Notes under the pieces: model-generated | Database searches by the model: none | Seen by the model: only the letters and a program-made list of their open reading frames with translations | What the model was told of the DNA's origin: nothing | In this document: positions 38,823-57,929 of the stretch, piece after piece | Layout of the letters: each line of letters opens with the position of its first letter | Position numbering within the stretch: position 1 is the stretch's first letter | Position numbers and translations under genes: made by a program | DNA from: Desulfobulbaceae bacterium | GTDB taxonomy: Bacteria > Desulfobacterota > Desulfobulbia > Desulfobulbales > SURF-16 | Direction: 5' to 3' | NCBI GenBank assembly: GCA_027859235.1 | Contig: JAQIBE010000263.1 | Coordinates: 3,568-67,567 of the forward strand | Length of the DNA stretch: 64,000 nt

Positions 38823-40904
38823 TTATACTGTCCTACCCCTATTAGCAAGAAACCCGATATGTTGCTTACGATCAGGCTGCTTGAATGCTATTTCTGCCTT
38901 TAACCCCCGGATTATCAGCTCAGGCTTCAACTTCAATCCACTTATTCGGGCTTTCCTTACCACAACAGCAAAATCACCAGGGGTAAGAAATCGACATTTC
39001 TCTAGTTCGCATCGCCATTGTTTTTTATTTTCCAATTCCCCCCCTTCTTCTTCAAAAACAGCCACAAAGAGACTCCATGCCTGATCCGATTTTAGGTAAT
39101 CAAACTTTATTTTCAAATCAAAACGCCGGAGTGAAGCCTGATCAAAACAGTCCATCAAATTAGTGGAACACACAAAAACACCGTTATGCCTCTCTATTTG
39201 CGTTAACAGCTCATTAACCTGGGTTACTTCCCAAGTATGACGGGCTCCACTACGATCACGAAGAAAACTATCGGCTTCATCAAGCATTAACACAGCTTTC
39301 TCGTAGGTGGCCTCATAGAACATATTGGCAATGTTGGCTTCCGTCTGCCCGAGATACGGGCCAAGCAGATCAGAGCCTCTTTTGACCAATAATGGCCTGT
39401 CCAGTTCTTTAGCTAAATAGCGACCAAACTCAGTTTTCCCTGTGCCAGAAGCGCCATAGAGACAAAGCCGCCCTTCCCCCTGTCTTTGGAGCCCCTGGAC
39501 AATCCCATGTAAATCATGATCGGAATTGACCGCATCAAGGCAATATCTAACATGGGGCATCGCCTCAACAACTGGCTGCCGCGGATACCCCATAGCCATC
39601 AAAGTAGATTCCAGTAGAATTTCAAGCTTCTTTTCTACGTCTTGAGGGCTTTCCATTTTCTGGCACTGCACAACACCAACAGCTCTTGCAATGACTGCTG
39701 GTGCGATATTCTTATTATCAGCCAAAAGCTCCAACCAGTCTTGACTGACCGACAGACCCTCTAGGTAGCCAGTAAGAATCTCAAGCCTCGTTGACCGTGG
39801 AGGATGATCCAGATGGAGCGCAATATCAAAGCGTCGAACAAAAGCACTTTCCGCATGACGTATATCATTCGCAATCCAGATGGCCGGCACTTGGTTGTTT
39901 TCAAGACTGTTATTAATGCTCGCTTTTAGATTTAGAGCCCCTCCAAACCCCCTGTGAAACCCGGAGTTTTCCAACAAACTATCAATCTCATCAAAAAGAA
40001 GAATTGTATTTTTCTGTCTGGCCAATACCTGTTGTGCCAACTGAAATGCTCTCAGCCGCTGTGGTTCATCAAATGGTCGTTCTTCACCACCGATACTTAC
40101 TTCATACAGTTTGCAACCAATCGTCTTTGTGACCGTCTTTGCAAACTGGCTCTTTCCAGTACCAGGAGGGCCGTACACCAGGATATTTACCCCTTTTACA
40201 TGATGTTCGCAGGCGTGCTGAATATGCGCTTTAACCAAGGCAAAGTGATCGCCAACATGCCGATAATTGTTTTCATCCAATTCAGGATTACTAGCTGGGG
40301 TGAAGTAATACTCTAACAGGGTTTCGATAGTACCCTCAGGCTCCTGGAGTGCATTAGCTAATCCTTCCAACAACTCAAGGTGATCGTAGACCAGGTGCTG
40401 TGATCCACCCATGATGTTTCCAACCTTTAACAAGCCAGACTGACCCAGCAAACCCTGCCGGGAAAGTGCATCACAGACTTCTTGACGTGGAAGAGCAAGA
40501 ATGACCGAAAGTGCAAAGACAAGACGCTCTACATTCCCTTCCCCCAAGGTATTCATTATTTCCTGAAGCCCTACGTCCTCCTGCAGCACAACAGTGAACA
40601 CCAATATCTCCCTCTCTGCATTTTTCAGCCCAAGATACTCCGCAATCTTCTTGCCATTTCGGGCTAAATTCTCATTGAGTCCGGCCGGTTGTTTCTCAAA
40701 CTTCTCCCTCTGCTTCCTTAGCGTTTCGACAAATTCCTTTTTTGTCATCTCCTGATCAACAAGATGATCTAATCCAATAGGGGCAAGGATGTCTGGGTCA
40801 GAGGTAAAATTGTAATGTTTTCTCTGCAGCATTTTCCAACCTTTGAGCTCCATTAAAACTTTCAAAGCCCACAGAGAAACTTGATTCTTTTGTTTTTTAT
40901 TCAT
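38823..40904 (-). CDS. tandem AAA+ ATPase (two Walker A/B modules) with an N-terminal domain of about 230 aa of unknown function
   Basis: 693 aa. Module 1 is ILVYGPPGTGKSQFAKTV ... ILLFDEIDSL. Module 2 is LCLYGASGTGKTEFGRYLAKEL ... VLMLDEADSFL ... SLRRFD. Confidence 0.8.
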   Translation of the reverse strand: MNKKQKNQVSLWALKVLMELKGWKMLQRKHYNFTSDPDILAPIGLDHLVDQEMTKKEFVETLRKQREKFEKQPAGLNENLARNGKKIAEYLGLKNAEREILVFTVVLQEDVGLQEIMNTLGEGNVERLVFALSVILALPRQEVCDALSRQGLLGQSGLLKVGNIMGGSQHLVYDHLELLEGLANALQEPEGTIETLLEYYFTPASNPELDENNYRHVGDHFALVKAHIQHACEHHVKGVNILVYGPPGTGKSQFAKTVTKTIGCKLYEVSIGGEERPFDEPQRLRAFQLAQQVLARQKNTILLFDEIDSLLENSGFHRGFGGALNLKASINNSLENNQVPAIWIANDIRHAESAFVRRFDIALHLDHPPRSTRLEILTGYLEGLSVSQDWLELLADNKNIAPAVIARAVGVVQCQKMESPQDVEKKLEILLESTLMAMGYPRQPVVEAMPHVRYCLDAVNSDHDLHGIVQGLQRQGEGRLCLYGASGTGKTEFGRYLAKELDRPLLVKRGSDLLGPYLGQTEANIANMFYEATYEKAVLMLDEADSFLRDRSGARHTWEVTQVNELLTQIERHNGVFVCSTNLMDCFDQASLRRFDLKIKFDYLKSDQAWSLFVAVFEEEGGELENKKQWRCELEKCRFLTPGDFAVVVRKARISGLKLKPELIIRGLKAEIAFKQPDRKQHIGFLANRGRTV

Positions 40905-42184: not shown

Positions 42185-42820
42185 CTACTCTATCAACATG
42201 TTAGCGAGAGATTGATTAAGTTCAGGTAAGACATTAGCATACAAGGCTGTCATATTAAGGCTGGCGTGACCCAGTTGTTTCTGGACAAAGCGTAGATTAC
42301 TTGTCTTCGCCAGAAGCAACGTGGCATAGGTATGCCGGGAGCTATGAATCGAGTAGTGAAGTGGAAGGTTTGCTGCTGCCACTGCCTTCTTGAAACTTAT
42401 TTCAAGGGCTGTGGTTGTGTAGTGGCGACCTGATCTACCAGCAAACAGTGGTGAGTCTTGACTAGCAGACTCCTGCCAGGCTCTTTTATGTGCAATATAT
42501 TGTCTTAGGTGACTAGCAATCTCTTGATCAAGGTAGACATCCCTTTTCTTTCCATGAGCGCCACGCCCCTTCCCGTGCCTGACTATCAGATAGTTATCTT
42601 CACCATTAACGAGGTGCAAATCACTCATCTTGAGAGCCGCTATTTCTGATACCCGTAACCCTGAATTAAGGGCCAAGTGAACAAGCATATACCGGGTCAC
42701 CCAAGTCTTACGGCCACACTTGGCATCCTGAGCCGCATTATATGCGCAGATAGCAAGTAGGCGTGAGACCTCGTGAACCGACAGAAACTTGTCACGGGTA
42801 ATGGAGTACCCGTTTCGCAT
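42185..42820 (-). CDS. tyrosine recombinase/integrase, catalytic domain only
   Basis: 211 aa with GLRVSE (Arg), HSSRHTYATLLL (H-x-x-R), LGHASLNMTALYANV (His, Tyr). No N-terminal SAM-like DNA-binding domain is present. Confidence 0.85.
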   Translation of the reverse strand: MRNGYSITRDKFLSVHEVSRLLAICAYNAAQDAKCGRKTWVTRYMLVHLALNSGLRVSEIAALKMSDLHLVNGEDNYLIVRHGKGRGAHGKKRDVYLDQEIASHLRQYIAHKRAWQESASQDSPLFAGRSGRHYTTTALEISFKKAVAAANLPLHYSIHSSRHTYATLLLAKTSNLRFVQKQLGHASLNMTALYANVLPELNQSLANMLIE

Positions 42821-43520: not shown

Positions 43521-43612
43521 TGGAGCGGGCGACGGGATTCGAACCCGCACTAATGGGGTGGCGCCCCGAACAGGCTCTGAAGGCCTGCGTGCTACCGTTA
43601 CACTACGCCCGC
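43521..43612 (-). tRNA. non-Sec tRNA with anticodon UCA (UGA-reading), glycine-type acceptor stem/discriminator, long variable arm
   Basis: Reverse complement reads GCGGGCG-TA-GTGT-AACGGTA-GCAC-G-CAGGC-CTTCAGA-GCCTG-TTCGGGGCGCCACCCCATTAGT-GCGGG-TTCGAAT-CCCGT-CGCCCGC-T-CCA. It is 92 nt with 7/5 acceptor/T stems, U33-U34C35A36, G1:C72 C2:G71 G3:C70 and U73. Confidence 0.8.
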
Positions 43613-43672
43613 TCAAAAAGTTACTTATAGTTTGTTTACTCTGAAATATCAATATCTGCTGGAGGTTCTTTA

Positions 43673-44374
43673 TTGGCTAGGAAACTAAAACATATCGTCT
43701 TTCCTTTGAAGGCATTTTTAGATACCAGGCGAACCTTCAAGCTTCCTGGAGCTCAAGAGGGGGCAGGATTATCACCACTTCTTGAAATCAGAAAGCGACG
43801 TGGCGAAGCACTGCTTGTGGAAGCTTTTTTTAATTTTATGGAGGCGGCAAATGTAGCTGACCCATCTCGTCAATTAGAGTTGTGGGACACTCTGATTTCT
43901 AAGGGTGGCTATATCCTTGACTTGGCTCAGCGTATTGGCTTAATGAACTGTTTTACGACTTTGCCAACAAAAAAACCTGAGCAAGCAGCCTATGTTGCCT
44001 GGTGTATTTTTTTAGACAGCTTGCGCCGAGAAAATGATACAAATCTGAAAAATATAGCAACCAAAAGTTTATTCAAACATTATTTCATCGGCCTATACCC
44101 AGAAAAAAATATCAAAAAGAAAGAGAACCTTCTCACCCTGCGCCGTCGACTCGAGGGCAAGTTGCGCAGGCATTGGGGGCTGAATATGGAGTTAAAAGAA
44201 TCTTTCACAACAGAGAATGATAGCTGTGAGTTTTCAATACGTATAAAACCTTATGAAGAACCGCAGCAAACATTAATTACTCATACAGGAACGAGGCTGA
44301 AACCGACAAAGATTGAAGCTTACAACTTTTTACTGAAGGGTATCTCGGAGGGAATGTATAGACCCGAGAAGTAG
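43673..44374 (+). CDS. hypothetical protein
   Basis: 233 aa. A TTG start has GGAGG 8 nt upstream and the stop is TAG. I recognise no motif. It lies between the tRNA(UCA) and the recoded ORF. Confidence 0.5.
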   Translation: MARKLKHIVFPLKAFLDTRRTFKLPGAQEGAGLSPLLEIRKRRGEALLVEAFFNFMEAANVADPSRQLELWDTLISKGGYILDLAQRIGLMNCFTTLPTKKPEQAAYVAWCIFLDSLRRENDTNLKNIATKSLFKHYFIGLYPEKNIKKKENLLTLRRRLEGKLRRHWGLNMELKESFTTENDSCEFSIRIKPYEEPQQTLITHTGTRLKPTKIEAYNFLLKGISEGMYRPEK

Positions 44375-44953
44375 AGCTGCCTGAGGTCGTCAGTTTTCAG
44401 CTCGGCTCGACAAGTAATCATTGAATATGCTTTTCTGTAACCTTCGCACCAGGTTAGTTTGTGAGCCGATGTTATAGCTGAGTGTTAATCTCATGGGTAA
44501 TATTTGGGGGGGGCGGTCCTAACTATTGAAAATTATTTAGAATAACCCCCTTTTTTTGTTGACCTTATTTTGTGCATCTATTAGTTATAACCTCAAGATA
44601 ATTTAGAGGTTTTTAAAAAGAAGTCATGTAGCTAAATTATAATGTAACAGTTTCTCACCTGCTTGTCAGTTGGTAGACCTGGCTCATCACCAGTCATCGC
44701 CAACAGGGACAGCACTCTCCGATTAGAACGGACTGTAATAGGTGTCGCAAACAAAGTTATGAGTAGGTAGTTGTCGAGATTCGATACCTGGGTAACTGGG
44801 ATGCATATCGTCAGGTAAGTGACTACATGCTTAAAACAATAAAGATGGTTGCGATATCCAGTTGACGCGTTTGAAGGGAGTAAGCGATAGTAGCTCTGAT
44901 TAATTTGTATATTATATACCCTGCATTTCTTGAGTTAATAGTTAAGGATATTT

Positions 44954-47056
44954 ATGAGTAAACATACAGATCAGAAGAACTCTTCGTCATTTGACGATTG
45001 ATTGCATAACCCCAAAAATATTTTAGAAAAACATAGCTGAAGAAAAGTATATTTAATTTCAGCCCTCACTGCATTATTCATAGCGTCTCCAGCTTTAACA
45101 TTTTCAGCAGGAGATGATCTTGTCAGATCTGACGACCCCATATCATTAAACTCTGAAGAGACAGGGACTCGGTGACGTTTGGCCCATGAGTTTACCCTGA
45201 AATCAGATGCCACGACCAGACTTTGGTTAACGCCTGAATATAGCGACCTGACCAAGTTTAGTGTACGCGCAGGTCTGGCATACATGTTTACCAATAACCT
45301 TGGTGCAGGACTTCTAGGGTCCCTTGGTGAAGATAAAAATGAAATCCTGGTAAATGCTGGTTGGCAGTTGGCGGATAATCACCGTTTTGTGGCTACCTTT
45401 AGCCATCTTCAGCAAAATTTAGAGTTTAACTTTGTCTCAGGTGAAGACGAAGCAGAGATCACCCAGAATAGTGGGGGGTTGAGTTATCAATACCTCGTTG
45501 CCAAAGGCATCCTCAATACCGTTGAGTTAAACGCCTATCTTGCCGACACCGGCAGCGAAAAGCTTACCGACAAGACATATGGCATTGATACCGCAACCAT
45601 ATTCGAACTATGGAACGATCCTCGTCGTATTGCCGGGGGTAAAGTTACAGGTATACAGAGTAAGATCACCCTTCTTCCATTTTCTGGGACGATCTTGACA
45701 CTAGGCGCCGGTATGGAAGAGTTGGAGTATGACTATCTTGCTGGAGCAGATAAAACCAGTAGGGCGACGGGTGAGGTTGAATTAACCCAAGAACTACCTG
45801 GCAACTTTCTTCTCGATGCCTGATTTTCAACCATGGCCGCGATGGATACTTGTAACATTGGTCTCGCCAAGGATTTCTCTGGTCATCAACTTGGCATAGG
45901 TTATACCAATATTCAAGGTCGAGATGGCGTTTTGAACGATAATCAATATACTCTTTCATACAGCTATACTTTCGGAAGTAGCCAAAACACTTCAACCACA
46001 AGCGGTAGAGACACGCTAGCAACAGCTTGAAGTCCTGATAAAGAACCTGCTAACCCTTGGTCAAGCTCCCTGCTTAATCAAATCGCCAAACGCCCCAGTT
46101 TTCTGCCATCTCAAGTTGTTGCCAAAGTCGACACGACTGTTGAACAGGAACGACTTATCGCCATTGACAAAACAGGCATGTCAACCGGAGCAACCATTGA
46201 TTCCGATACTGGTATTATAACCGTCCCTCTAGGTGTTGCCGTTACCACTATAGCCTGAATTACCCTTGATGGTGGTCCATTCACCAATACGGGTCAATTC
46301 AGCTTGACTAGTGATGATATCATTATCAATCCTGATCTCATCACTGAACCTGCTGTCTGAGATACGGACCTGTATGTTGTCACTGTCAACAATTCTGGCG
46401 GTGGTACAACAGTAGTTTCAATTACCGTTAGCCACGGTTCGGTACAGATTGACAATATCACTGTGACAAGTTGAGATGCGTCACTAAACATCACAAGTGT
46501 TGCATTCTTCTGAGCTATACCGAATCAAACAAACGCTTCATATAATAATCTTATATTAAAGACTAACGTAGATATCAAATCTATTGATTCGATAGTTGCA
46601 TCTTTAGGTTGAGCAGTAACTATTACCTGAATCAGCGGAGACCAGGTTTCATTCAACTGGACAGGAACACCAACAACATGAGCTAACACATTCACCCTAA
46701 TAGCAACAGCCAACAACGACCAAGAAACAACAACTTCAACAACAGTTACAATGGAAACTCCTAACATAGTTCCAACTTTAAATTCAGTTTCTGTTTCATG
46801 AACTACATTAATTAGTGCTTGAGGTGATAATTATACTATTGTTCAACTTACTGATGAAGATATTACCTTTACTGCTAATTGAACCGATGCAGATTGAGAT
46901 AATTTGAAAATAGTGATTAACTGAACAATATATAATTGAACTTCAGAAACTATTACTTTAAATTTAGCTCAAGGTGAAATAGTACAATTTTATATTAAAG
47001 AGTTTGATTGAACTGATTATAGTAATGAAATATTGGTACAAATTGCATGAAGATAA
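44954..47056 (+). CDS. putative secreted outer-membrane-anchored adhesin (signal peptide, beta-barrel-like region, Ig-like repeats), translatable only with TGA as a sense codon
   Basis: The ATG at 44954 follows AAGGA. The frame has 701 codons to the TAA at 47054, with 20 in-frame TGA and no TAA or TAG (hand-translated). Track ORFs 45179..45823 and 45833..46030 are same-frame pieces of it. The signal peptide KVYLISALTALFIASPALTFSA lies between TGA number 2 and number 3. Confidence 0.6.
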
Positions 47057-47063
47057 AAAAAAT

Positions 47064-47089
47064 GAGATTAAATCTCGTTTTTTTTTTTT
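47064..47089 (+). terminator. AT-rich hairpin plus T12 tract after the recoded ORF
   Basis: GAGAT-taa-ATCTC is followed by GTTTTTTTTTTTT and preceded by an A8 tract, so it may act in both directions. Confidence 0.5.
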
Positions 47090-47266
47090 ATATATATTTT
47101 AACATGATCAATTACTGAAAATCCACACCAAGAACAGTAACCCCTCGCAGCATTTTTGTTGCTCTTGTTCATCTCTGGTCTTCGAGCAACTAAGGGTCAA
47201 ATCTTTATTGTTGACACTTGCAACCAACACGCTGAAATCAGAAAAGAAAGTTACGCTTTACATTAC

Positions 47267-48108: not shown

Positions 48109-51100
48109 CTACCAGTCCGACTTGTTCGGATAGTTCACGCGACCCTTGAAGTACTTCACGTTGAGCGACTTATCAATCAGCACGACACCAATAGAATGCG
48201 AAAACCGCCCTCTGCTTCGATAGGTCTCTTTCTCATAACGCTGAAGGTCGAAGAGCAATAGTAGCTCCCTGTCGTACTTCATCAGCACTTTCTTAAGTAC
48301 GCTTGATTTGCAGAGAAGCCTCAGCCCCGGATGAGGGCCGTCTTCTTGATTGGTTTCATCGCGCCCCCAGGCCTCGGCCCAGAGCGATAGCATCTCGTGA
48401 TTGTTATCCCAGAAACGTCCGAATGCATCCTGCCGTGTCAGCTTACATAACTCCGAATAGTCTTGAGCAAGACGCGGTCGAAGATTAGCGACCGAAACGC
48501 CATGTGGATCATGTTCATCCAGACGGGTTTCGCCGGATGGGCAGACAATCCAAGGTGAGTACTCCTTCTTCTCGCTGCGAAGATATTCGTCATCGTCTTC
48601 GCAGCCCTGGAAAGTAGGTACATAGGCCAGTATGGGCTTTTCGCGGATGAGCTTTCTCGCAAACTGCGCAGCCCTTTTGGGCGAAACAAGCGCAGAGGAT
48701 AATCTGACTTCAACACCATCGGATGAATACCATCTGCCCTGAATAATCAGTTCCCTGTCAATCCCTTTTTCAATGTCGAGGGCGGCGAGTCCAATAATCT
48801 TCTTCTGATCGCCGGTTATCGCGAGCCCCTTCTTCTTAGATTCAAGCAGCCTCACAGAGGCGTCATCAGGCGTCCTGTCCGTTCCATCGGAAAGCCATAA
48901 GCCATCCTTGCGCGTAAGTCCGTAGCGGCCGAGCCACTCTCCCCAAGGGTCGTCCTCGTACCACCAGTCGTCGGTTACAGGATGGGCGGCAAGCAGCTTG
49001 CCAGCAGCGATGAATAGAGCATGCCAGCCGAGCTGTTGCCCATACCCGTGAAAGCGGGTCGTCATTTCATGAGAACTTCGCCCTCGCGACTCGCGGCCGC
49101 CATCCTCATACATATGCGTCATTGACGGATCGCTCTTTTGTACGATGCCCGACATCATGTCATCAACTTCCCAGCAGCCCTTGCCGAACACTTGGCTGAG
49201 GCTATCAACGTCATGCTTCTTAAATTCGTACTCCAAATGAAACCGAAAGGGCGGCTCGGGTACTGTCTTCGGACGGCCCTGGTAGAAGCCGCCGCCGTTG
49301 CGGCTCTTCTTTCGTAAACGCGGATGCGGGGACTTGTCGGCATTACGCACAAGCTTGAGCGTGGCTGCGTCAAGCGCCAGTTTGCTGCGATCTACACAGG
49401 CAAGAAGCGCTTTGGCGGCAAAGTGGCGCATAAGCACATGCGGCTCGTCTTTTTCCATGATGACAGCCAGGAGTAGATCCTTGTAACGCGCCACCTGATC
49501 GGGATGATCGATAGCGGCCCGCGCTAGGGTGATCAGGAGCCATAGCCGTGCATGCAGGTAATAGAACACGAGCTCTGGTGCCTGAAACGGTTCAGCAGTC
49601 TTCGTGTCGAAGGCGGCAACAACCGTGTCGACAATGCCCCAGCGCCCGAACTTTGCAAATCGGCGTATGCAGTGAGCCGCGCGCCATCTGTCAACCGCAT
49701 GTGGCGAACCGATGACACGCCATATTAGCCCAGCAGCGATTTCGTCGAAGTCATTTACTGGGTAGCAGCCAGCTTTCCACGAGCCGTCTGTTACGTTGTC
49801 GGCAATCCGTGCCGAGTCACTCGACAGGAGGCGCTTCAGCGCAAGCTGCCCCTGCCCTTCATCCGCTTCCGGGCATATGAAATTTGCGAACGCAAGCCAT
49901 ACTGATCCGGCGACGGTGCTATCAGGACGTGAGTAGACCTTTATCACCTCAACGACGAGTTCGGCCATGGGCACGCCCGTGAACTCGGATATCTCCTTAA
50001 TATTCGCCCCCGAGAATCGACCGTCATCGACCAAATCATCGGCATGGGCAAGAATCAGAGGCTGTGCCAGGCTCCTATAGACACCCGCAAGCGCCGCGGA
50101 TGATCCGCCCCAGGCTTCCTTCGCATCTTTCAGTTCTGTGAATTTCCAGTAGAAAAACAGATGCTCCAGATTGGCAACATTGCGAATGTATTGACCGCGC
50201 GCAGCAAAGGGCACTTTGGCACGCAGCGCAGAAAAGAAGCCGCCTTTTAGATCATACATATTCCCCAGCGCATTAAATCCGTCGATGGCCTTTACAAGCG
50301 ATGCCTCGTCAGTCGGGGCCGTCGCTTCGGCTATACGAACGAGTGCATCCTTGTTTTCACTGTCACGTTTGGCAGCTTCTCTACGCATCTTCGGATCTAA
50401 GTCACTGCTACTATCATACGCAGTATTGCGCCCTTGCCTTGCGGTCTCGTATCGGTCCCGCGCGGCTTTCAGGTGCTTAGTTAGATCATGCGATGCACTC
50501 AGCGCTTCGTCAGCCAGAGCGTAAAGTGTCTCGACAGTCTCGTCACTCGCTATCGTCGGATTGTCATCCTCGAACTGTGTTATCAGCTCCGTAATCACTT
50601 CGGCATCCGGCCCGGCTTGCTGGCGCAGCGCTTTCGAAAATTCTTTTGTGCCCGCAAAGAAATACTCCGCGGGTTCGGCAAGACGGTTAATACAAAGTGC
50701 ATCCTTCGGATCGATCTTTTCCGCTTCGAGCATGCCCGTAAGATAGGTGAGAAGCGTGTTGTTCAGAGCTACCCTGTTGCGGTCATCCCAGCGACTGAGC
50801 TTGGCCAGGCCACGCATCCCGGCTGCCTTTGCCATGCCGCGACCGTACGCACCCCAGAAAAACTTCTCGGGCTCCTCCCCCATATTGAGTTCGCAGATAT
50901 TGCTCAGCGTGTGAAAGTCACGTTCTTCCAGTTCGTCACCTTTCATCTCCGATGCGAACAAGAGCAGCTCATTCGTGAACAGGTAATCACCCGAACCGAT
51001 TGCATCCATCTGCTCCAGACCATTCCGGAAGTACGCAGCAGCCTCATCGAGGCTGGCTGGAAGTATTGCCCGGCCAAGAGTGCCAAAGAGAGATGCCCGA

Positions 51101-54100
51101 TAGGTAACGTCATCCTCTTTTTCGATCATCGCGCGCGCCGTTACGGCCTGCTCTCCTGCAATCGAGTGCAGCGGGGTTCGTTGCGCGAGAATCGCAATGA
51201 TACGAACCAAGTCACTGGCGTTGCTCATATGGGCGTGTACGGCCGTCAGCATGCGCTCTATGGACTGTGGCTTCAGCTCGCTGTGAGACCACAATGTGAA
51301 GAGAACAGCGTCAAGACCCAAGAATTGAAAGAAGGGATCGATATCCCCAACCCGGTAATGGTCGCGATTCTTTCGAGTCTGCTCCCAGGCTTCCACAAGC
51401 TCGACAAACCGCTTGTCGATGGTCCGCGCCGATGCCGTGAGTGCAGCCGACAGTGCCTCTGTGAGAGTAAGCAGCGGCTCCAGGCGGATGTCAAGAAAGC
51501 GCTCAGCAGCCTGCTGTTCATCATAGCTAATGGCATTAGTCGGCACGTTCTTGGTCTGTCCATCATCGTAACGCGGCTTGCGCGGAAGCTTGGAGAGCTG
51601 CTCCTTGGCCTTCTCTCGGAAGATTTTTCCAGAAATGGTCTTCGGAATGCGCGCGCAGACCGATACGAGCTCCTTTGGTAGTAGATCCTTCTCGTGAATA
51701 GCGCGCTTCTTTGCGGCAGCAAGCAGGGCAATCCGGAATATATAAACGAAGACATCGGTGCGGCTGAACGCGTCACGGTATGCCCAGATTCCGGGCCGGT
51801 CATGCCGCGCTCTTAGTGAAATAGATTGAGCCTCAGCGCCGAGGCCCAACGAGAGCGCGACGACGGCCGACTTCCTCAGGCCGTCTTCGAGTTCGTAGTT
51901 CTTGCGGCTTGAGTATCTTTGCGGCAAGTCAAGCTTCGTCACCTTCTTGCATAGAGCGGCAAGTTTTACGCAAAGCGGCTTGCGTCTAGAGTTCGCCAGC
52001 TCGTGAAACGACAAAGCAGCCGCAAGCGGACCGATACTGGAGAGCGCATCGATGAACTGGCCAGCCCGGCGAGCGGGCTGCGTTCCTAGCAAGGTGGCAA
52101 GATGCGTGTATCCGAGGACGAGCTGAGAGACTTCAAAGGCATACCAATCCCGCCAACCTGTGAGGTAGCTGGCCGCACCTTCTGTGCGACCTTCCGAGAT
52201 TAGAAAGAAACTTGAGGCAGCGATGTCGGCCTGGTCAGGAACCGGTCCACGATCAAAATCTTTCCGCTCTGTGCGCCGGTAATGCTGTATCCACTCTTCA
52301 TTTGCATGGGCATGACGGGTCGCCTCTGCCAGATCACCCGATAAAACATTGACGATAGTAAGACGCGCATGTCGGGTTCCTGGCCAAGCCGTTCTTATTT
52401 CAAATAGTCGCCGCCGGGCGTCAACATCTTCGGCAGCAACGACAAGATCAGGATGTTCCAGCAGGTAATCGGCTCCACGCTGATCAACCTCGGCTATGGT
52501 CGATAGCTCGACGAGCAGCCGCACAAGGCTGTTGTAGTCAACCTTGAGAGCCGCGTGCAAAGTGGCTGCCTTAAGCCGGGAATATTGAATATTGCGCTTA
52601 CCAACAGTGCTGGTAATTGAGGCGGGAATACGATCATCGAAAGCAAGTGCGAACAGACGCTCACCATCATCAAGTTCGTGTAACAGACGCGGAAGCGCAC
52701 GGGCTGCATACACCGACGCATCCTGGCGAGCAAGGAGATTGGATGCTACACGCTCAAGCGCATCACGTGATGTCGCGTATCGCTTGTGAATCAGCGTTTC
52801 CGTTGGCTCATCACGGAACATGAGCCCATGATTGGTGCGCTCCAGTAGAGGGCTCAGGTCTGAAGCAAAGCTCTCAATGGCGGCGAGATCCATGCCATGA
52901 GCGGCGGCATACTCATCCACCGGCACCGGCGGAGGAAGCACCGCCAGCCCTGCAAGAAAGGCACTGAGGTCATTCTCCTCATAACCTTGCTTTGTGGCCA
53001 AAGAGAGTGCATCCGTGATTCTTTGTTGAATCAGGTCATCCAGCTCAATGTCCTTGTTGACCTCGGATGGATCGAGAAGGCCACGACCTGCCTTGATCAG
53101 GTAATCCAGCACACGCGGATTCCCGCCGGACCGGGCGTGCGCGACGTTTACTTCTACGTTCGTGACGCTTTTTAGGCGCGCGCGCAAAAACGCGGCCGTT
53201 TCATCCTTGGTAAACGGGCATAGTTCGAATTCATCGAACTTGGCGTAGGTTTTTGGCTTGCGTTCTGTACGGCAGGATACGATTAGGTTTACGCCGTCAA
53301 TCGGTTCCGTATCGATACTCTCCAGCAGCTTGATGGGAAAGCAGTCTTCGCTTGCCTGACCGGCAGCAAAGGCTGCATTGTCGATGGCATCGATAAAAAT
53401 CGCCAGCTTGCGTCCTGGCATCATGCGCGAGATGGTGTTCAGGCACTGCGTAAGGCGGCGGCGGAATGTGCTGAGCAAAGTGTGCACATCAGGACTGTCC
53501 GGTAGCATCGGATCGCAGAGGCCGCGAAATGCCAGTGTATTCGCAATATGAATAAGCCCCTTTTTGGGTAGGTGTCGCGCGTCTTCCGGAGAGCGGTAAG
53601 CACCGCCACCAAAACAATCGAAGAAAACAACCTCGTGGTCCGTGGCTATCTTCGAGGCGAGCGAATCCATAAAGACTGTCTTGCCCACGCCACCGGTCGC
53701 ATGAATGAGAAGCGGCGTTGACGTGCTGCCGATGCGGGTCATGGCCTCGCGGAGCTGTTCCCGCGCCAGTACTTTGTCGACACCGGCGATGGCCGCTTCA
53801 CAGGGAAGCAGGTCCTTCGGGGAACCGATCTGAAGAGCGGCCAGCACGTCAGTGCGTCTGATCAGATTTCGGTCGGTACCAGCATAACCGGCTTTGTCGC
53901 GGACAAGTTCCCGAAGCTTCCCGAGCCGGGCGGCAGCAATCGGGTCACTCGTGGCAGACCAGTCAACGAGCAGGTTGGCAAGTTCGCCCTTTGTTTGCGG
54001 CAGGCTTCCGGAGCGGCCAATGATTTTGAGCTTTCGTGCAAATGCCGCCAGTGGCTTTCCCGACAAACCGGAAGCGGTCTCGAACTGCTTCGCCTGCTCC

Positions 54101-54588
54101 TTAACATCGCCAGTTGGGTTTGCTCCCGTTGCCGTAGCATCTATGGCTTGAAGCAGTAAATCGCTGATTGGCTGGTTTGTGACGAGCTGAAAGTCGAGTT
54201 TGTCTTCGACCGCTTTGGCACCGTACTTGCGTTTAAATGAGCGGTAAGTCTCGCCAAACTTTTCTACTGTCTTCTTTGCGTGAGAGGCACGGAAATCCTT
54301 GTTCTGATTAGCGATGGAGTATTTGAACTGGGCAAATGTCGTTCGGACGGCATTCTCGAAATTTGGCCGTGGGCCGTAGTAGAACGTCAGGTCAGCGACC
54401 TCGACTGTAGCAGCGGACGCCCCGGTCTGATCGTCAGGTGAAGGCCCTTCAACGGCGATTGCGGTCAGGTCGGTGTCGGGCCATAGCAACTGCGTCGCTT
54501 TACGCGCCGTCCAAGCCTCGTGAAACTCATGGCCGTCCCGCGATGCCCTGACTTTATCAATTTTTTTACTTCGTCTACCAAGCCCCAT
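48109..54588 (-). CDS. giant STAND/NACHT-like P-loop NTPase (Avs-like architecture) with a possible N-terminal nuclease-fold effector and a long helical-repeat C-terminal region
   Basis: 2159 aa in a GC-rich block. Walker A is LLIHATGGVGKTVFMDSLA and Walker B-like is LAIFIDAIDNA. The N-terminus SRDGHEFHEAWTARKATQLL ... VEVADLTFYY ... FAQFKYS is reminiscent of PD-(D/E)xK Cap4/DUF4297-type domains, a low-confidence recollection. Confidence 0.7.
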   Translation of the reverse strand: MGLGRRSKKIDKVRASRDGHEFHEAWTARKATQLLWPDTDLTAIAVEGPSPDDQTGASAATVEVADLTFYYGPRPNFENAVRTTFAQFKYSIANQNKDFRASHAKKTVEKFGETYRSFKRKYGAKAVEDKLDFQLVTNQPISDLLLQAIDATATGANPTGDVKEQAKQFETASGLSGKPLAAFARKLKIIGRSGSLPQTKGELANLLVDWSATSDPIAAARLGKLRELVRDKAGYAGTDRNLIRRTDVLAALQIGSPKDLLPCEAAIAGVDKVLAREQLREAMTRIGSTSTPLLIHATGGVGKTVFMDSLASKIATDHEVVFFDCFGGGAYRSPEDARHLPKKGLIHIANTLAFRGLCDPMLPDSPDVHTLLSTFRRRLTQCLNTISRMMPGRKLAIFIDAIDNAAFAAGQASEDCFPIKLLESIDTEPIDGVNLIVSCRTERKPKTYAKFDEFELCPFTKDETAAFLRARLKSVTNVEVNVAHARSGGNPRVLDYLIKAGRGLLDPSEVNKDIELDDLIQQRITDALSLATKQGYEENDLSAFLAGLAVLPPPVPVDEYAAAHGMDLAAIESFASDLSPLLERTNHGLMFRDEPTETLIHKRYATSRDALERVASNLLARQDASVYAARALPRLLHELDDGERLFALAFDDRIPASITSTVGKRNIQYSRLKAATLHAALKVDYNSLVRLLVELSTIAEVDQRGADYLLEHPDLVVAAEDVDARRRLFEIRTAWPGTRHARLTIVNVLSGDLAEATRHAHANEEWIQHYRRTERKDFDRGPVPDQADIAASSFFLISEGRTEGAASYLTGWRDWYAFEVSQLVLGYTHLATLLGTQPARRAGQFIDALSSIGPLAAALSFHELANSRRKPLCVKLAALCKKVTKLDLPQRYSSRKNYELEDGLRKSAVVALSLGLGAEAQSISLRARHDRPGIWAYRDAFSRTDVFVYIFRIALLAAAKKRAIHEKDLLPKELVSVCARIPKTISGKIFREKAKEQLSKLPRKPRYDDGQTKNVPTNAISYDEQQAAERFLDIRLEPLLTLTEALSAALTASARTIDKRFVELVEAWEQTRKNRDHYRVGDIDPFFQFLGLDAVLFTLWSHSELKPQSIERMLTAVHAHMSNASDLVRIIAILAQRTPLHSIAGEQAVTARAMIEKEDDVTYRASLFGTLGRAILPASLDEAAAYFRNGLEQMDAIGSGDYLFTNELLLFASEMKGDELEERDFHTLSNICELNMGEEPEKFFWGAYGRGMAKAAGMRGLAKLSRWDDRNRVALNNTLLTYLTGMLEAEKIDPKDALCINRLAEPAEYFFAGTKEFSKALRQQAGPDAEVITELITQFEDDNPTIASDETVETLYALADEALSASHDLTKHLKAARDRYETARQGRNTAYDSSSDLDPKMRREAAKRDSENKDALVRIAEATAPTDEASLVKAIDGFNALGNMYDLKGGFFSALRAKVPFAARGQYIRNVANLEHLFFYWKFTELKDAKEAWGGSSAALAGVYRSLAQPLILAHADDLVDDGRFSGANIKEISEFTGVPMAELVVEVIKVYSRPDSTVAGSVWLAFANFICPEADEGQGQLALKRLLSSDSARIADNVTDGSWKAGCYPVNDFDEIAAGLIWRVIGSPHAVDRWRAAHCIRRFAKFGRWGIVDTVVAAFDTKTAEPFQAPELVFYYLHARLWLLITLARAAIDHPDQVARYKDLLLAVIMEKDEPHVLMRHFAAKALLACVDRSKLALDAATLKLVRNADKSPHPRLRKKSRNGGGFYQGRPKTVPEPPFRFHLEYEFKKHDVDSLSQVFGKGCWEVDDMMSGIVQKSDPSMTHMYEDGGRESRGRSSHEMTTRFHGYGQQLGWHALFIAAGKLLAAHPVTDDWWYEDDPWGEWLGRYGLTRKDGLWLSDGTDRTPDDASVRLLESKKKGLAITGDQKKIIGLAALDIEKGIDRELIIQGRWYSSDGVEVRLSSALVSPKRAAQFARKLIREKPILAYVPTFQGCEDDDEYLRSEKKEYSPWIVCPSGETRLDEHDPHGVSVANLRPRLAQDYSELCKLTRQDAFGRFWDNNHEMLSLWAEAWGRDETNQEDGPHPGLRLLCKSSVLKKVLMKYDRELLLLFDLQRYEKETYRSRGRFSHSIGVVLIDKSLNVKYFKGRVNYPNKSDW

Positions 54589-54936: not shown

Positions 54937-55863
54937 TTAGTAGATTTCCTCTTTTATTAGGCCTACACACGACAGGTTGATGACAGTTAACATGTTATCG
55001 CACATATGCTCGATTCCCATCAATGTTGATAAGTCAGGTGCGAACTTCTCTCCTTCTTGAAAGATATTGGGGAATGGACACCATGGTTGTGATGTTAATT
55101 TTGCAAATTCTTCGGTAACTAAGGGTTCATTATGGACTAATAAATTTCTTAGATGAGCGACAGTGTCGAGAGATTCTGCTACTCCATTTAATAGTTCGCC
55201 CATACCTCCCATTGAAAGTTTTGAAATTTGAATATATGAACTGAAGACTTTTTTTATACCATCATAAGCTTTTTTTCTGTGCCAAGTATTTAACCTTTCT
55301 GTCCATTGAATATCCCATTCTTTATTTAGTTCAGGATCTTCATTTTTTGTTCTATATAGCTTCCTTAAATCTCTAAACTGTTTGCCACGTAGAAGTGATG
55401 ATGGATTGTGGTTAAGAAAAATTTTATAAGATATAAATATATACTCTTCAATAGCACTATAAATCTCAATAATCCCATTTTCTGCAATCAAAGGTTGTAT
55501 AGTCTGATAGTTATCTGCTACTTCATCGCCATTCCATAAAGCGATTTTTGATCTGCCCATTGTTTTATCTTTCTGAACTCTAAATGAATCAATCCAAAAT
55601 TTTCCATTCTTTTTAAAATCATCATCAGAATATCTCTCGATAGCTTTTTCTATAGAATTGAGGCAAAGTGCCCATTTTATATATGCACTTCTAAATTTTG
55701 CTCGCCAATCACCTATTTGTTCTGTTGTTTCATTTAACCATTTTTGCCCTGCGGTTAGCGCAGGTACTATAATATTATTTGGACTGACAAATTCTGGTAA
55801 ATCAGTAGCATTTATATATTTATGTCCTACAAAATCTACTCTTTCTTTCATTCGCTTTCCCAA
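54937..55863 (-). CDS. HEPN-motif protein (putative RNase/abortive-infection-type effector)
   Basis: 308 aa at about 33% GC. AHLRNLLVHNEP contains an R-x4-H HEPN signature near the C-terminus. The protein is otherwise unrecognised. Confidence 0.5.
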   Translation of the reverse strand: MGKRMKERVDFVGHKYINATDLPEFVSPNNIIVPALTAGQKWLNETTEQIGDWRAKFRSAYIKWALCLNSIEKAIERYSDDDFKKNGKFWIDSFRVQKDKTMGRSKIALWNGDEVADNYQTIQPLIAENGIIEIYSAIEEYIFISYKIFLNHNPSSLLRGKQFRDLRKLYRTKNEDPELNKEWDIQWTERLNTWHRKKAYDGIKKVFSSYIQISKLSMGGMGELLNGVAESLDTVAHLRNLLVHNEPLVTEEFAKLTSQPWCPFPNIFQEGEKFAPDLSTLMGIEHMCDNMLTVINLSCVGLIKEEIY

Positions 55864-56496: not shown

Positions 56497-56682
56497 ATGG
56501 AAGATCGCTGGTTATCTGTTGAAGAAATAGCCAAATACTTATGTGTCAGCAAAGACACCATATCCAACTGGATCAATTGGAAAAATATGTCTGCTCATAA
56601 AGTTGGACGGTTATGGAAGTTCAAGCATGAAGAAGTTGATGAGTGGGTGAAATCAGATGGAGCTGCAGAAAGTGACAGATAG
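56497..56682 (+). CDS. excisionase/MerR-type helix-turn-helix DNA-binding protein
   Basis: 61 aa. WLSVEEIAKYLCVSKDTISNWI...AHKVGRLWKFKHEEVDEWV is the classic HTH_17 pattern. It overlaps the brxA start. Confidence 0.8.
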   Translation: MEDRWLSVEEIAKYLCVSKDTISNWINWKNMSAHKVGRLWKFKHEEVDEWVKSDGAAESDR

Positions 56683-57286
56683 TAAGTACAAAATGTCCTT
56701 CACTTCCGGAGGCCTGTTTTTTAATGAATCACTGCAGGTTGCTGAATTATTTAATGAAATTGGTGATTGGCAGAAAACCCGTGATCACGTTTTATTAGAT
56801 AATTTTCTGCAGGCTCGAACAGAGAGCAGTGCCAAACGCAGAGCCCGAGAAATATGTTTTCGCTTAGAGTTGTTAACAGACGCCCAACTACAATTGCTCA
56901 TTTCAGGTTCACGACATGAACAGCAATACCTTCTCTGGGTGGCGGTCTGTAAACGCTACTCTTTTGTCCATGAATTTATGATGGAGGTTGTACGGGAAAA
57001 ATACCTGCGTATGGATCTCCATCTTCACTACCAGGATTACGAGATCTTTTTTGCCGACAAGGCCGAGTGGCATGAAGAACTGGAACACCTCCGGGACTCA
57101 ACACGGGCAAAACTTAGACAGGTTCTTTTTAAAATCATGCGAGAGTCAGAAATTCTGTCACCTGACAATATGATCATCCCCGGCCTTCTTACTGAACAAT
57201 TAACTAAGGTGCTGACGGCAGACCACCCCGCCTTACTTGCACTGTTCCCTGTGTCTGACATGGATATCAACTCATGGTTAGCGTAA
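56657..57286 (+). CDS. brxA: BREX protein BrxA (DUF1819)
   Basis: 209 aa. Y.MSFTSGGLFFNESLQVAELF...DW..TRDHVLLDNFLQARTESSAKRRAREICFRL matches BrxA, and it sits before brxB and brxC. Confidence 0.85.
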   Translation: MELQKVTDSKYKMSFTSGGLFFNESLQVAELFNEIGDWQKTRDHVLLDNFLQARTESSAKRRAREICFRLELLTDAQLQLLISGSRHEQQYLLWVAVCKRYSFVHEFMMEVVREKYLRMDLHLHYQDYEIFFADKAEWHEELEHLRDSTRAKLRQVLFKIMRESEILSPDNMIIPGLLTEQLTKVLTADHPALLALFPVSDMDINSWLA

Positions 57287-57894
57287 ATTACGACATGAAC
57301 CAATTTTCAATTAATGACAGTTTCGATCATCTGCTTAAACTCATCAGCAGTGAGCGGTTTCTGAAGAAACAGGGGCTGGGCAATGAAGTCCCTTTTTTTA
57401 TATGCCCCTTTCCGCCTCAGAAGGCTGTGGACATGGAAAGGCTCCGTATTCAGTTACGAAATAAACTCGAACAACAGGGTATTCGTATTCTTGATATCAA
57501 TCTTTATGATCTGGCCGTTGATATCCTAAAAAAACGTAATATTTGGGATCGTATTCTTGAAACTGAAGGGTCTATAGACAAAGAGCATCTCAAAGAACTC
57601 CTGCAGGGCATTCTTGATTCACAAGCACACTTGATCCCTGCCATAGCAGAGGAAATGGCTAAAGCCGATTTTGATGTGATGTTTCTCTCCGGAGTTGGGG
57701 AAGTTTTTCCATACATTCGCTCCCACAATGTCCTGAACAACCTGCAAAGTACCGCCAAAGAAAGGCCTACTGTGATGTTCTTCCCTGGTGCTTATACCCA
57801 ATCTTTAGAAGGCGGCGCATCCCTGGATCTCTTTGACTGTTTACATGATGACAAGTATTACCGGGCATTCAACATTTTCCACTGCGAGATTTAA
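57274..57894 (+). CDS. brxB: BREX protein BrxB (DUF1788)
   Basis: 206 aa with FFICPFPPQ and LSGVGEVFPYIRSHNVLNNLQ, and the expected gene order. Confidence 0.85.
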   Translation: MVSVNYDMNQFSINDSFDHLLKLISSERFLKKQGLGNEVPFFICPFPPQKAVDMERLRIQLRNKLEQQGIRILDINLYDLAVDILKKRNIWDRILETEGSIDKEHLKELLQGILDSQAHLIPAIAEEMAKADFDVMFLSGVGEVFPYIRSHNVLNNLQSTAKERPTVMFFPGAYTQSLEGGASLDLFDCLHDDKYYRAFNIFHCEI

Positions 57895-57929
57895 CCGGGA
57901 CAAACTACGCCCACATAAAAGGAAAACCC

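Follow-up and report, generated by a model that had tools for sequence, protein, structure and literature searches.

Background

Code reassignment is usually seen as a genome-wide event or as a phage trick. Known from the literature are genome-wide code 25, phage recoding, the selenocysteine (Sec) and pyrrolysine (Pyl) systems, selC* and allo-tRNAs, and sporadic suppressor tRNAs. We analysed a 64-kb stretch of DNA (64,000 nucleotides, "the window" in what follows) from a metagenome-assembled genome (MAG) of a Desulfobulbaceae bacterium, in which a gene at 44954-47056 carries 20 in-frame TGA codons. The evidence supports the reading that this gene makes sense only with TGA decoded as an amino acid, while TGA is a stop elsewhere in the genome. 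From sequence comparison we consider it likely that the gene (the cargo) is part of a self-contained recoding cassette in which a tRNA(UCA) reads UGA as glycine, with a 700-aa surface protein as the result. If true, the cassette is neither of the two usual kinds of reassignment.

Code 25, used by Gracilibacteria and Absconditabacteria, has the same assignment of UGA to Gly and a tRNA(UCA) with the same glycine identity set. Cassettes in Bacteroidota also have Trp-type tRNAs for CGA and CGG, which are read as Trp in Absconditabacteria; UGA, CGA and CGG are the three codons reassigned there. Code 25, however, is genome-wide and belongs to tiny episymbiont genomes, whereas the cassette concerns one or two genes in standard-code genomes that stop at UGA. 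In the literature examined, we found neither an RNase III-like partner nor an mRNA leader reported for code-25 organisms; the cassette tRNAs are, in addition, long-armed.

Phage code switching likewise places a suppressor tRNA beside genes with in-frame stops, in a standard-code host and for a subset of genes, plausibly as an expression gate. It reassigns TAG to Gln or TGA to Trp in late or lytic genes of phage genomes, whereas the cassette is chromosomal, lacks phage genes, has secreted or surface cargo and appears to use Gly.

The Sec machinery (tRNA-Sec, the selenocysteine insertion sequence or SECIS, and SelB) also recodes UGA in specific mRNAs by means of a long-variable-arm tRNA, a cis mRNA structure and a dedicated protein, and by analogy it is the nearest counterpart in logic to the mechanism we propose. 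The cassette would differ in inserting a standard amino acid at 20-36 sites per gene through a 7/5 tRNA of Gly identity. Its candidate cis element is a single 5' leader and not a hairpin for each UGA, and its candidate protein is RNase III-like and not a paralogue of elongation factor Tu (EF-Tu).

The selC* tRNA-Cys(UCA) species and allo-tRNAs share a long variable arm, opal or unusual anticodons and standard-code bacterial hosts with the cassette tRNAs, and some have U73 or partner proteins. They are of 8/4 or 9/3 type with Ser, Ala or Cys identity and occur in delta-proteobacteria and Acidobacteria (Mukai et al., NAR 2017, PMC5389517). They are not described beside UGA-rich genes, whereas the tRNA family described here is 7/5 by covariation and has a Gly-type acceptor and core. 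In the full-text literature searched, a limited set, we found no prior description of a chromosomal cassette of tRNA, RNase III-like gene, leader and cargo. With its function read from comparative evidence, the cassette looks like a gene-specific private code.

Results and discussion

A long frame interrupted only by TGA

44954..47056, + strand: cargo gene, 700 aa, 20 UGA apparently read as Gly (30 % of its Gly codons), from sequence, codon counts and homologs

Codon-by-codon translation of the cargo gives a frame of 701 codons that holds 20 TGA and no TAA or TAG ahead of the terminal TAA at 47054. A first-pass annotation made from the letters alone had listed the 20 TGA positions, all of which are exact, and had correctly excluded in-frame TAA and TAG. 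From base composition about 19 TAA and about 12 TAG (about 31 together) are expected in the frame, and the probability of finding none is about 2e-14; the other five frames of the same interval contain 8-41 TAA plus TAG. There are no frameshifts. Starting at the alternative TTG at 45002 in place of the ATG at 44954 would leave 19 TGAs. Two same-frame fragments that are open in the standard code (45179-45823 and 45833-46030) are found where the first-pass annotation had placed them, and GenBank annotates the gene as short hypothetical fragments (PF442_10725 and others; MDA39718xx, tags PF442_107xx).

The cargo is the sole long, TGA-rich frame free of TAA and TAG in the window that does not overlap a standard gene. 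TGA is a real stop in 8 of the 39 other open reading frames (ORFs) of the window, including glyQ (1405-2262), rnpA, yidC and mnmE. The earlier claim of a local genetic-code anomaly, argued from the TGA ends of glyQ, yidC and mnmE among others, thus holds: the gene is coherent only with TGA as sense, while other ORFs of the window stop at TGA. The same figures, together with the lack of any other stand-alone TGA-rich frame in 64 kb, set the host apart from code-25 organisms, in which UGA is sense genome-wide.

Over the 39 window ORFs of at least 100 aa, a small sample, the stops are TAA 17, TAG 14 and TGA 8. For DNA of about 50 % GC, TAG seems unusually frequent and TGA rather rare. The scarcity of UGA stops might reflect selection against them in a genome that carries a UGA suppressor.

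One explanation is that such a gene results from pseudogene decay or from sequencing error, with the adjacent tRNA described below a coincidence. The annotation as short hypothetical fragments only and the blank Pfam result on the conceptual protein (no family with TGA entered as X or as G) would fit this explanation, which we regard as effectively refuted. The probability of a frame free of TAA and TAG and the absence of frameshifts speak against it, and so does the conservation of the TGAs across assemblies and orthologs, with Gly in the corresponding columns of homologs. In L189, a contig of 99.8 % identity that was assembled independently from another sample, every one of the 20 TGAs is present and the gene differs by 3 substitutions, which excludes a one-off assembly error. 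The first-pass argument against decay is borne out in that TGA is the sole stop type, present 20 times, and that the TGAs are kept in L189 and partly in the ortholog L191. The same architecture recurs at 18 or more other loci in several phyla. The cargo is neither a pseudogene nor an assembly artefact.

A tRNA(UCA) with glycine features lies upstream

43524..43612, - strand: predicted UGA-decoding tRNA(UCA), 7/5 cloverleaf, anticodon loop CUUCAGA; CCA encoded at 43521-43523

The first-pass annotation overlooked what most likely explains the frame, namely the tRNA(UCA) together with a structured leader and a partner gene of RNase III-like type. The tRNA lies 1.3 kb upstream of the cargo on the opposite strand. 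It carries G1:C72, C2:G71, G3:C70 and U73, the glycine identity set; these are the marks of a Gly-accepting tRNA(UCA) used by Shulgina & Eddy 2021 (PMC8629427). Its variable arm has an extra hairpin of about 19 nt with a GGGG/CCCC stem and a CGCCA loop, and the minimum free energy fold is a cloverleaf plus this hairpin. ARAGORN labels the sequence 'tRNA-SeC (tca)', while Rfam matches it to the general tRNA family (62.3 bits) and not to tRNA-Sec. When the variable arm is left out and the remaining sequence is compared with 549 other tRNAs, tRNA-Gly accounts for all 13 of the closest matches and tRNA-Ser comes last.

Over the 27 distinct sequences of the tRNA family, 96.4 % of cells are paired. 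Compensatory changes occur in 18 of 27 pairs, among them every one of the 6 pairs of the variable arm. The 7-bp acceptor stem and the 5-bp T stem are 100 % paired. The loop of the variable arm conserves a YCCA motif although the sequence of the stem varies. The host encodes glyQ, the alpha subunit of a GlyQS-type synthetase, and the features of the tRNA suggest that it is most likely charged with glycine by this enzyme.

UGA columns correspond to glycine

With the TGAs masked as X, the conceptual cargo protein has 101 uninterrupted homologs, mostly in Betaproteobacteria, with E values down to 4e-138 and alignments over the N-terminal 60-87 %. Four TGA columns can be aligned, and the homologs there carry Gly 69 and Ser 23; Gly 64 of 68; Gly 70 of 86; and Ser 50, Gly 25 and Ala 14, with Trp or Cys in none. 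The first-pass annotation had proposed recording the residues at these columns and translating with tables 4 and 25. Glycine dominates three of the four, and the columns favour UGA as Gly (as in table 25) over Trp (table 4).

Exchange between orthologs points the same way. The ortholog L191, from another data set and 58 % identical in amino acids, has 6 TGAs in common with the window gene and shows 7 exchanges between TGA and GGN. In seven Bacteroidales cargo orthologs, which form an unrelated family, TGA and GGN swap within the same columns (FPV*FH/FPVGFN, I*TNAQ*N/IGTNADGD and K*YYK*V/KGYYKGV, where the asterisk is TGA), and 32 % of the non-TGA residues in ungapped TGA columns are Gly (52/163) compared with 4.3 % Gly overall.

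Altogether we collected 20 cargo genes (19 plus that of the window) with 406 in-frame TGAs and no TAA or TAG, in which TGA makes up 17-70 % of Gly codons. The base that follows TGA is distributed as the base that follows GGN; TGA therefore acts as an ordinary Gly codon. A special TGA context, such as +4 bases of weak termination, was considered and rejected on the same distribution. By these comparisons UGA behaves as a glycine codon in the cargo genes. The window gene has CGA at invariant Arg columns, which indicates that UGA is the only codon recoded in it.

It is conceivable that UGA stands for another amino acid: Ser through seryl-tRNA synthetase (SerRS) and the long variable arm, Trp in the style of code 4, or Cys or Sec through U73 and a selC*-like tRNA. 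The variable arm does resemble class II, ARAGORN calls the tRNA SeC, and Ser ranks first among the residues at one TGA column and second at another. U73 is also the discriminator of cysteinyl-tRNA synthetase and selC* tRNA-Cys(UCA) species exist (PMC5389517). The genome has, besides, a true tRNA-Sec at 2276-2369 (Rfam RF01852, 63.8 bits), 10 nt past glyQ on the opposite strand. We nevertheless hold this possibility very unlikely. Three of the four alignable columns are dominated by Gly and none has Trp or Cys, and unrelated cargo families regain their conserved Gly motifs. The cloverleaf is 7/5 and not 8/4, 9/3 or 8/5, and its core is tRNA-Gly-like and least like tRNA-Ser. C2:G71 and U73 differ from Ser identity. 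A SECIS element for each codon is impossible with 20-36 UGAs per gene. The features of a tRNA-Sec, namely an 8/5 acceptor/T branch of 13 bp, G73 and UGA at Cys or Sec columns, are replaced here by 7/5, U73 and Gly columns. Decoding as Trp, Cys or Sec was accordingly rejected on the Gly columns without Trp or Cys, the 7/5 tRNA and U73. With glycine as the preferred reading, stop, Sec and Gly would be three meanings of UGA in one organism. We also note that glyQ is not followed by glyS in the window.

A structured leader precedes the cargo

44640..44925, + strand: structured leader RNA of about 280 nt, lying between ORF233 and the start codon of the cargo, with rod-like nested helices, from conservation and covariation

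44460..44640, no strand assigned: 180-bp segment absent from L189, from contig comparison; unique in the window, no flanking repeats found

The leader is the best-conserved stretch of the locus. An nhmmer search finds it upstream of the cargo in L191, L190, L120, L110, L105, L095 and L108, which makes eight loci with the window; in L105 it precedes an unrelated cargo. RNAalifold predicts 47 nested pairs, 31 of them with compensatory changes. In this alignment 92.6 % of cells are paired, a value reached by none of 500 shuffles and compared with about 40 % for slid-partner controls; the alignment has eight sequences only and served both to derive the structure and to test it. No Rfam family matches the leader at the gathering score in the window and 10 related loci, where the only hits are at chance level (E >0.5). 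The Bacteroidota cassettes have a conserved leader of their own, about 250 nt long and with a predicted structure.

The 180-bp segment holds a G8 run and a GGGGG...CCCCC-T7 motif, and its 3' limit coincides with the 5' edge of the leader. The segment might act as a switch, carry a promoter or terminator, or represent a small mobile insert, and its membership of the cassette is uncertain. We also observed a 28-nt inverted repeat (43630-43657 / 44940-44967, 79 % complementary) by which sequence upstream of the tRNA resembles the region of the cargo ribosome-binding site and ATG; it may be due to chance.

ORF233 resembles a catalytically degenerate RNase III

43673..44374, + strand: ORF233, RNase III-fold protein (helical nuclease-like domain plus C-terminal double-stranded-RNA-binding domain, dsRBD), standard code, divergent from the tRNA

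Homologs of ORF233 lie 20-150 nt from the tRNA at 13 other loci, 9 of the window type and 4 of a Campylobacterota/Aquificota type, and at 30 Bacteroidota loci an ORF of about 340 aa follows the tRNA or tRNAs. An RNase III-like gene thus adjoins the tRNA at 43 of the 47 listed loci, the remaining 4 being cut by locus or contig ends.

ORF233 has no hit in Pfam or PADLOC. The top hits of its family profile against the PDB are all RNase III, though weak (E about 0.07). The AlphaFold 2 (AF2) model has a predicted local distance difference test (pLDDT) score of 87.1, and its top Foldseek matches are Aquifex RNase III-dsRNA complexes, mL44 and Dicer, with a best E of 1.7e-4. Those to 2nug, 2nue, 2ez6 and 1yz9 have E 1.7e-4 to 7e-4 and probability 1.0 over 196-242 columns, and the C-terminus matches dsRBDs. 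On the model, then, ORF233 combines the fold of an RNase III domain with a dsRBD, as bacterial RNase III does. The catalytic acids (E40, D44, D107 and E110 in Aquifex) are not conserved in the family: E40 is replaced by K/R, D107 and E110 by aromatic residues, and D44 is E in some members and K/R in those of Campylobacterota. The sequences suggest a catalytically dead or degenerate RNase III-fold protein, comparable to the mitoribosomal mL44, from which the catalytic acids are likewise missing. In contrast to canonical RNase III, a housekeeping enzyme of ubiquitous occurrence, the ORF233 family is tiny (152 clusters among 1.84e9 representatives), unannotated throughout and always beside the special tRNA.

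The partner protein of Bacteroidota matches Pfam Ribonucleas_3_3 (E 2e-8) and C. jejuni RNase III (3n3w, E 4.8e-4) and combines RNase III and dsRBD; the RNase III signature ERLEFLGD is replaced by SRYVFLGQ. The two partner families are analogous and possibly homologous.

Related cassettes occur in several phyla

A tRNA pattern scan of one genome per species lists at least 47 genome loci with homologous tRNAs, in Proteobacteria, Desulfobacterota, Campylobacterota, Aquificota and Bacteroidota; all counts are of matches listed. Hosts include Propionivibrio, Thiobacillus, Methylobacter, Sedimenticolaceae, Desulfobacterales, Desulfocapsa, Campylobacterota, Hydrogenothermus and many rumen Bacteroidales, and some loci sit on 0.4 to 4.1 Mb scaffolds of standard-code bacteria. 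An isolate, Prevotella sp. tf2-5 (L118, NZ_FOWK01000011.1), has both the RNase III-like gene and the tRNA(UCA). In its stored record about 1.5 kb upstream of the tRNA, the expected cargo site, reads as N. The Lamellibrachia barhami endosymbiont (NZ_JAAVSH020000001.1) has two copies of the tRNA and an ORF233-type gene (L144 and L152) about 1.7 Mb apart on a 4.1-Mb scaffold; one genome can therefore hold more than one cassette.

TGA-rich frames free of TAA and TAG, with 7-36 TGAs, lie beside the tRNA at 18 or more of the 47 listed loci and also in L190 and L191. The figure comes from inspected translations and tblastn. Automatic cargo tests (ORF coverage in other frames, G1-G2 periodicity) were too noisy and rejected the clear cases L157 and L188.

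At 24 loci (23 in Bacteroidota plus Hydrogenothermus), one or two extra tRNAs with long variable arms stand in tandem with the tRNA(UCA). Their anticodon is UCG in 22 cases and CCG in 5, and every one of them shows G/A1:U72 and G73, by which Trp identity has been called; ARAGORN labels them tRNA-Arg. The resulting arrays (UCA, UCG, CCG) contain two or three tRNAs, for example in L072, L146 and L178. In the seven Bacteroidales cargo orthologs, 13 CGA/CGG columns are never Arg and have hydrophobic or aromatic residues instead, and CGA replaces TGG in one conserved Trp column. CGA apparently meaning Arg in the window gene, which has the UCA tRNA alone, and not Arg in Bacteroidota cargo with the extra tRNA(UCG), provides a useful internal control. 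By comparison across these loci, the tRNA, the RNase III-like protein and the leader are each conserved, both RNAs covary and the four parts are genetically linked across phyla.

We looked for the cassette in mobile DNA as well. With the pattern that yields 47 or more genomic copies, no member of the tRNA family was found in the 2.9 M viral contigs of IMG/VR, where a generic tRNA pattern gave 66 matches, 2 of them tRNA(UCA) and both unrelated. The neighbouring ORFs scanned around the window locus include none recognised as a phage structural gene. A phage module was rejected on these two results. Plasmid records gave no DNA-similarity match.

Alternatively, the cassettes could be DNA of code-25 organisms (Absconditabacteria/Gracilibacteria), present as contamination, chimera or untranslated acquired DNA, as a relic of the donor or in the service of a code-25 episymbiont. 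UGA as Gly is the assignment of that code, and the Bacteroidota cassettes add the Trp-type tRNAs for CGA and CGG. Some cargo is low in GC and dense in TGA, such as L190b (GC 0.27, 33 TGA vs 14 GGN) and the 3' end of the window gene (GC 0.29). Codetta's authors report Absconditabacteria contigs as contaminants of assemblies, and Absconditicoccaceae are episymbionts of other bacteria. We judge this origin unlikely on several grounds. The cassette of the window sits on a 79-kb contig together with the host core genes mnmE and yidC and was assembled independently in other samples, and tRNA loci elsewhere are on the large standard-code scaffolds mentioned above. The closest homologs of the cargo are ordinary proteobacterial proteins, up to 55 % identical, and its 5' two-thirds have a host-like GC. 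The turnover between TGA and GGN and the intact frames of orthologs that are 58-64 % identical show continuing purifying selection within these lineages. ORF233 is in the standard code, and no Gracilibacteria or Absconditabacteria are among the 47 tRNA matches listed.

Cargo proteins look secreted or surface-exposed

The window cargo begins with a signal peptide, followed by an outer-membrane beta-barrel (about residues 85-345), a linker, a conserved beta-sandwich (about residues 365-505) and a variable C-terminal region. Its last 190 or so residues have GC 0.29, are dense in TGA and lack alignable homologs. The signal peptide does sit behind a TGA, as the first-pass annotation noted, and the arrangement is the same in L191.

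The homolog P0004, whose alignment to the cargo spans both domains, was modelled as a stand-in. Its AF2 model has a 16-strand sheet at residues 70-330 (pLDDT >94) and a beta-sandwich at residues 350-485, and Foldseek matches it in the PDB to the outer-membrane barrels OmpG, FadL/TodX and PorV and to autotransporter translocators. This high-confidence model and its fold matches back the proposed outer-membrane barrel with an Ig-like passenger. The inverse-autotransporter layout that had been proposed stands as to domain order, since intimin and invasin (type Ve) also have a signal peptide, an N-terminal outer-membrane barrel, a linker and a C-terminal Ig-like/beta-sandwich passenger. Membership of that group does not stand: the cargo matches neither IAT_beta (PF11924) nor LysM in Pfam, no intimin or invasin is in the top 50 Foldseek PDB hits, and the best folds are OmpG, FadL, PorV and classical autotransporter barrels. 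The intimin barrel has 12 strands, compared with about 16 in the P0004 model.

Across loci the cargo proteins are diverse and all look secreted or surface-exposed. They include the outer-membrane barrel of the window type, a subtilase that has a sorting domain of the type IX secretion system (L072), a Bacteroidales lipoprotein family and the pilin-like L190b. The last is a second cargo in L190 (6327-8141, - strand) of about 600 aa with a type IV pilin-like N-terminus, GC 0.27 and TGA for 33 of 47 Gly codons; it is convergent to the barrel-type cargo of that locus, with an IS200-like Y1 transposase gene nearby.

The cassette lies in a defence island

42185..42820, - strand: tyrosine recombinase/integrase, 211 aa, catalytic domain only (Pfam Phage_integrase, E 1.9e-29)

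47064..47090, + strand: AT-rich hairpin followed by a T12 run, read from the sequence; probable weak intrinsic terminator

The first-pass annotation placed a terminator after the TAA. The hairpin and T12 run are present, but they are AT-rich and weak, lie below the G+C criterion of our terminator scan and were not called by it. L189 ends just past them.

The integrase is located on the 3' side of the tRNA and is not a conserved neighbour at other tRNA loci; we mention it as context only. No att-like repeats of the tRNA 3' end, sought as bounds of an integrated island, were found in the 64-kb window. The cassette lies inside a defence island (36340-61472) with an IetA-like AAA ATPase (38823-40904), an Avs3-like gene (48109-54588) encoding a STAND NTPase of 2159 aa (GC 0.55), and the BREX genes brxA/brxB/brxC (56657-61472). 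This setting, together with the integrase, allows for mobility or a defence-related role of the cassette. Between the Avs3-like gene and BREX lies a standard-code ORF of 308 aa (54937-55863, - strand; GC 0.33) with a weak Collagen_bind match (E 8.6e-4), another putative low-GC surface protein.

Another explanation that follows from this setting is a tRNA-based stress, defence or regulatory device, in which the RNase III-like protein restrains a toxic suppressor tRNA and its release leads to proteome-wide read-through (abortive infection), with the TGA-rich gene as sensor or by-product. In addition to the defence island, the strongest linkage is that between the tRNA and the RNase III-like gene, cargo being evident at fewer loci, and UCG and CCG tRNAs that reassign sense codons would be harmful if they acted freely. 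We find this explanation quite unlikely. The cargo is long and intact, its frame is selected, and UGA at 17-70 % of Gly codons is sensible only if the gene is translated with the tRNA. The leader is attached to the cargo and not to the tRNA, ORF233 has no PADLOC hit, the tRNA family is absent from the viral contigs and no phage-related trigger is evident.

A model for gene-specific decoding of UGA

On the preferred reading of a recoding cassette, the tRNA(UCA) would be glycylated by the glycyl-tRNA synthetase of the host and would then read the 20 cargo UGAs as Gly in competition with release factor 2 (RF2). The predicted product, 700 aa long, is an outer-membrane barrel protein whose beta-sandwich/Ig-like C-terminus would be exposed at the surface. 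ORF233 and the leader probably control or direct the decoding of UGA. We favour a scheme in which ORF233 binds the helix of the tRNA variable arm and/or the long irregular hairpin of the leader, by which suppression would be gated or focused on the cargo mRNA and UGA would remain a stop for the rest of the proteome. Glycine aminoacylation, translation in the host and binding by ORF233 are steps that we infer from sequence. Biologically, the cassette might serve to switch or 'lock' the expression of a surface protein.

A number of points weigh against this reading. The support for recoding is comparative throughout. Of the TGA columns that can be aligned, two also accept Ser, as the top residue in one and the second in the other, and 14 TGAs fall in the C-terminal third, where alignable homologs are lacking. 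A36-G37 is unusual for a reader of codons starting with U, and G37 is present in all family members but one. The long variable arm could attract SerRS instead. The pattern of the tRNA scan fixed the T-loop and the 3' CGCU, so that the 'invariant' Gly identity of the family is partly by construction. The ORF233 and Bacteroidota partner families are not significantly related by hhalign (E 0.21). Cargo is evident in only about 40 % of loci, many of which have short flanks, with poor detection in high-GC DNA. The yield of full-length protein equals the per-codon suppression to the 20th power (0.9^20, about 12 %), which calls for very efficient suppression, and efficient suppression should also read through host genes that end in UGA (8 of 39 here). 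Loss of RF2 is a feature of code-25 organisms, and the RF2 gene, prfB, does not lie within the 64 kb analysed.

A bolder version of the model, which we put forward as a possibility that we doubt more than we believe, is an mRNA-specific private code. Here the dead RNase III/dsRBD protein would bridge the variable arm or arms of the tRNAs and the leader, and only ribosomes on the cargo mRNA would read UGA as Gly, and in Bacteroidota also CGA and CGG as Trp, leaving the proteome untouched. Such a portable 'code lock' would share its codon set with Absconditabacteria, perhaps by descent or through an arms race with episymbionts.

Conclusions

At least one cultured organism, Prevotella sp. tf2-5, carries the tRNA and the partner gene, which makes the question directly testable. 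If the cassette works as proposed, it would supply natural and possibly orthogonal tRNA, protein and leader parts for synthetic biology. It would account for 'fragmented hypothetical' genes and 'orphan tRNA-Sec' calls in Bacteroidales, Desulfobacterota, Campylobacterota and Proteobacteria. It would also offer a plausible intermediate stage for the rise or spread of the Gracilibacteria/Absconditabacteria code, including CGA and CGG. For its hosts it would mean that two codes operate side by side in one cell. The proteome would be written in the standard code and a few genes for surface proteins in a private one, for which a dedicated tRNA of non-canonical type would work with an mRNA leader and an RNA-binding protein.

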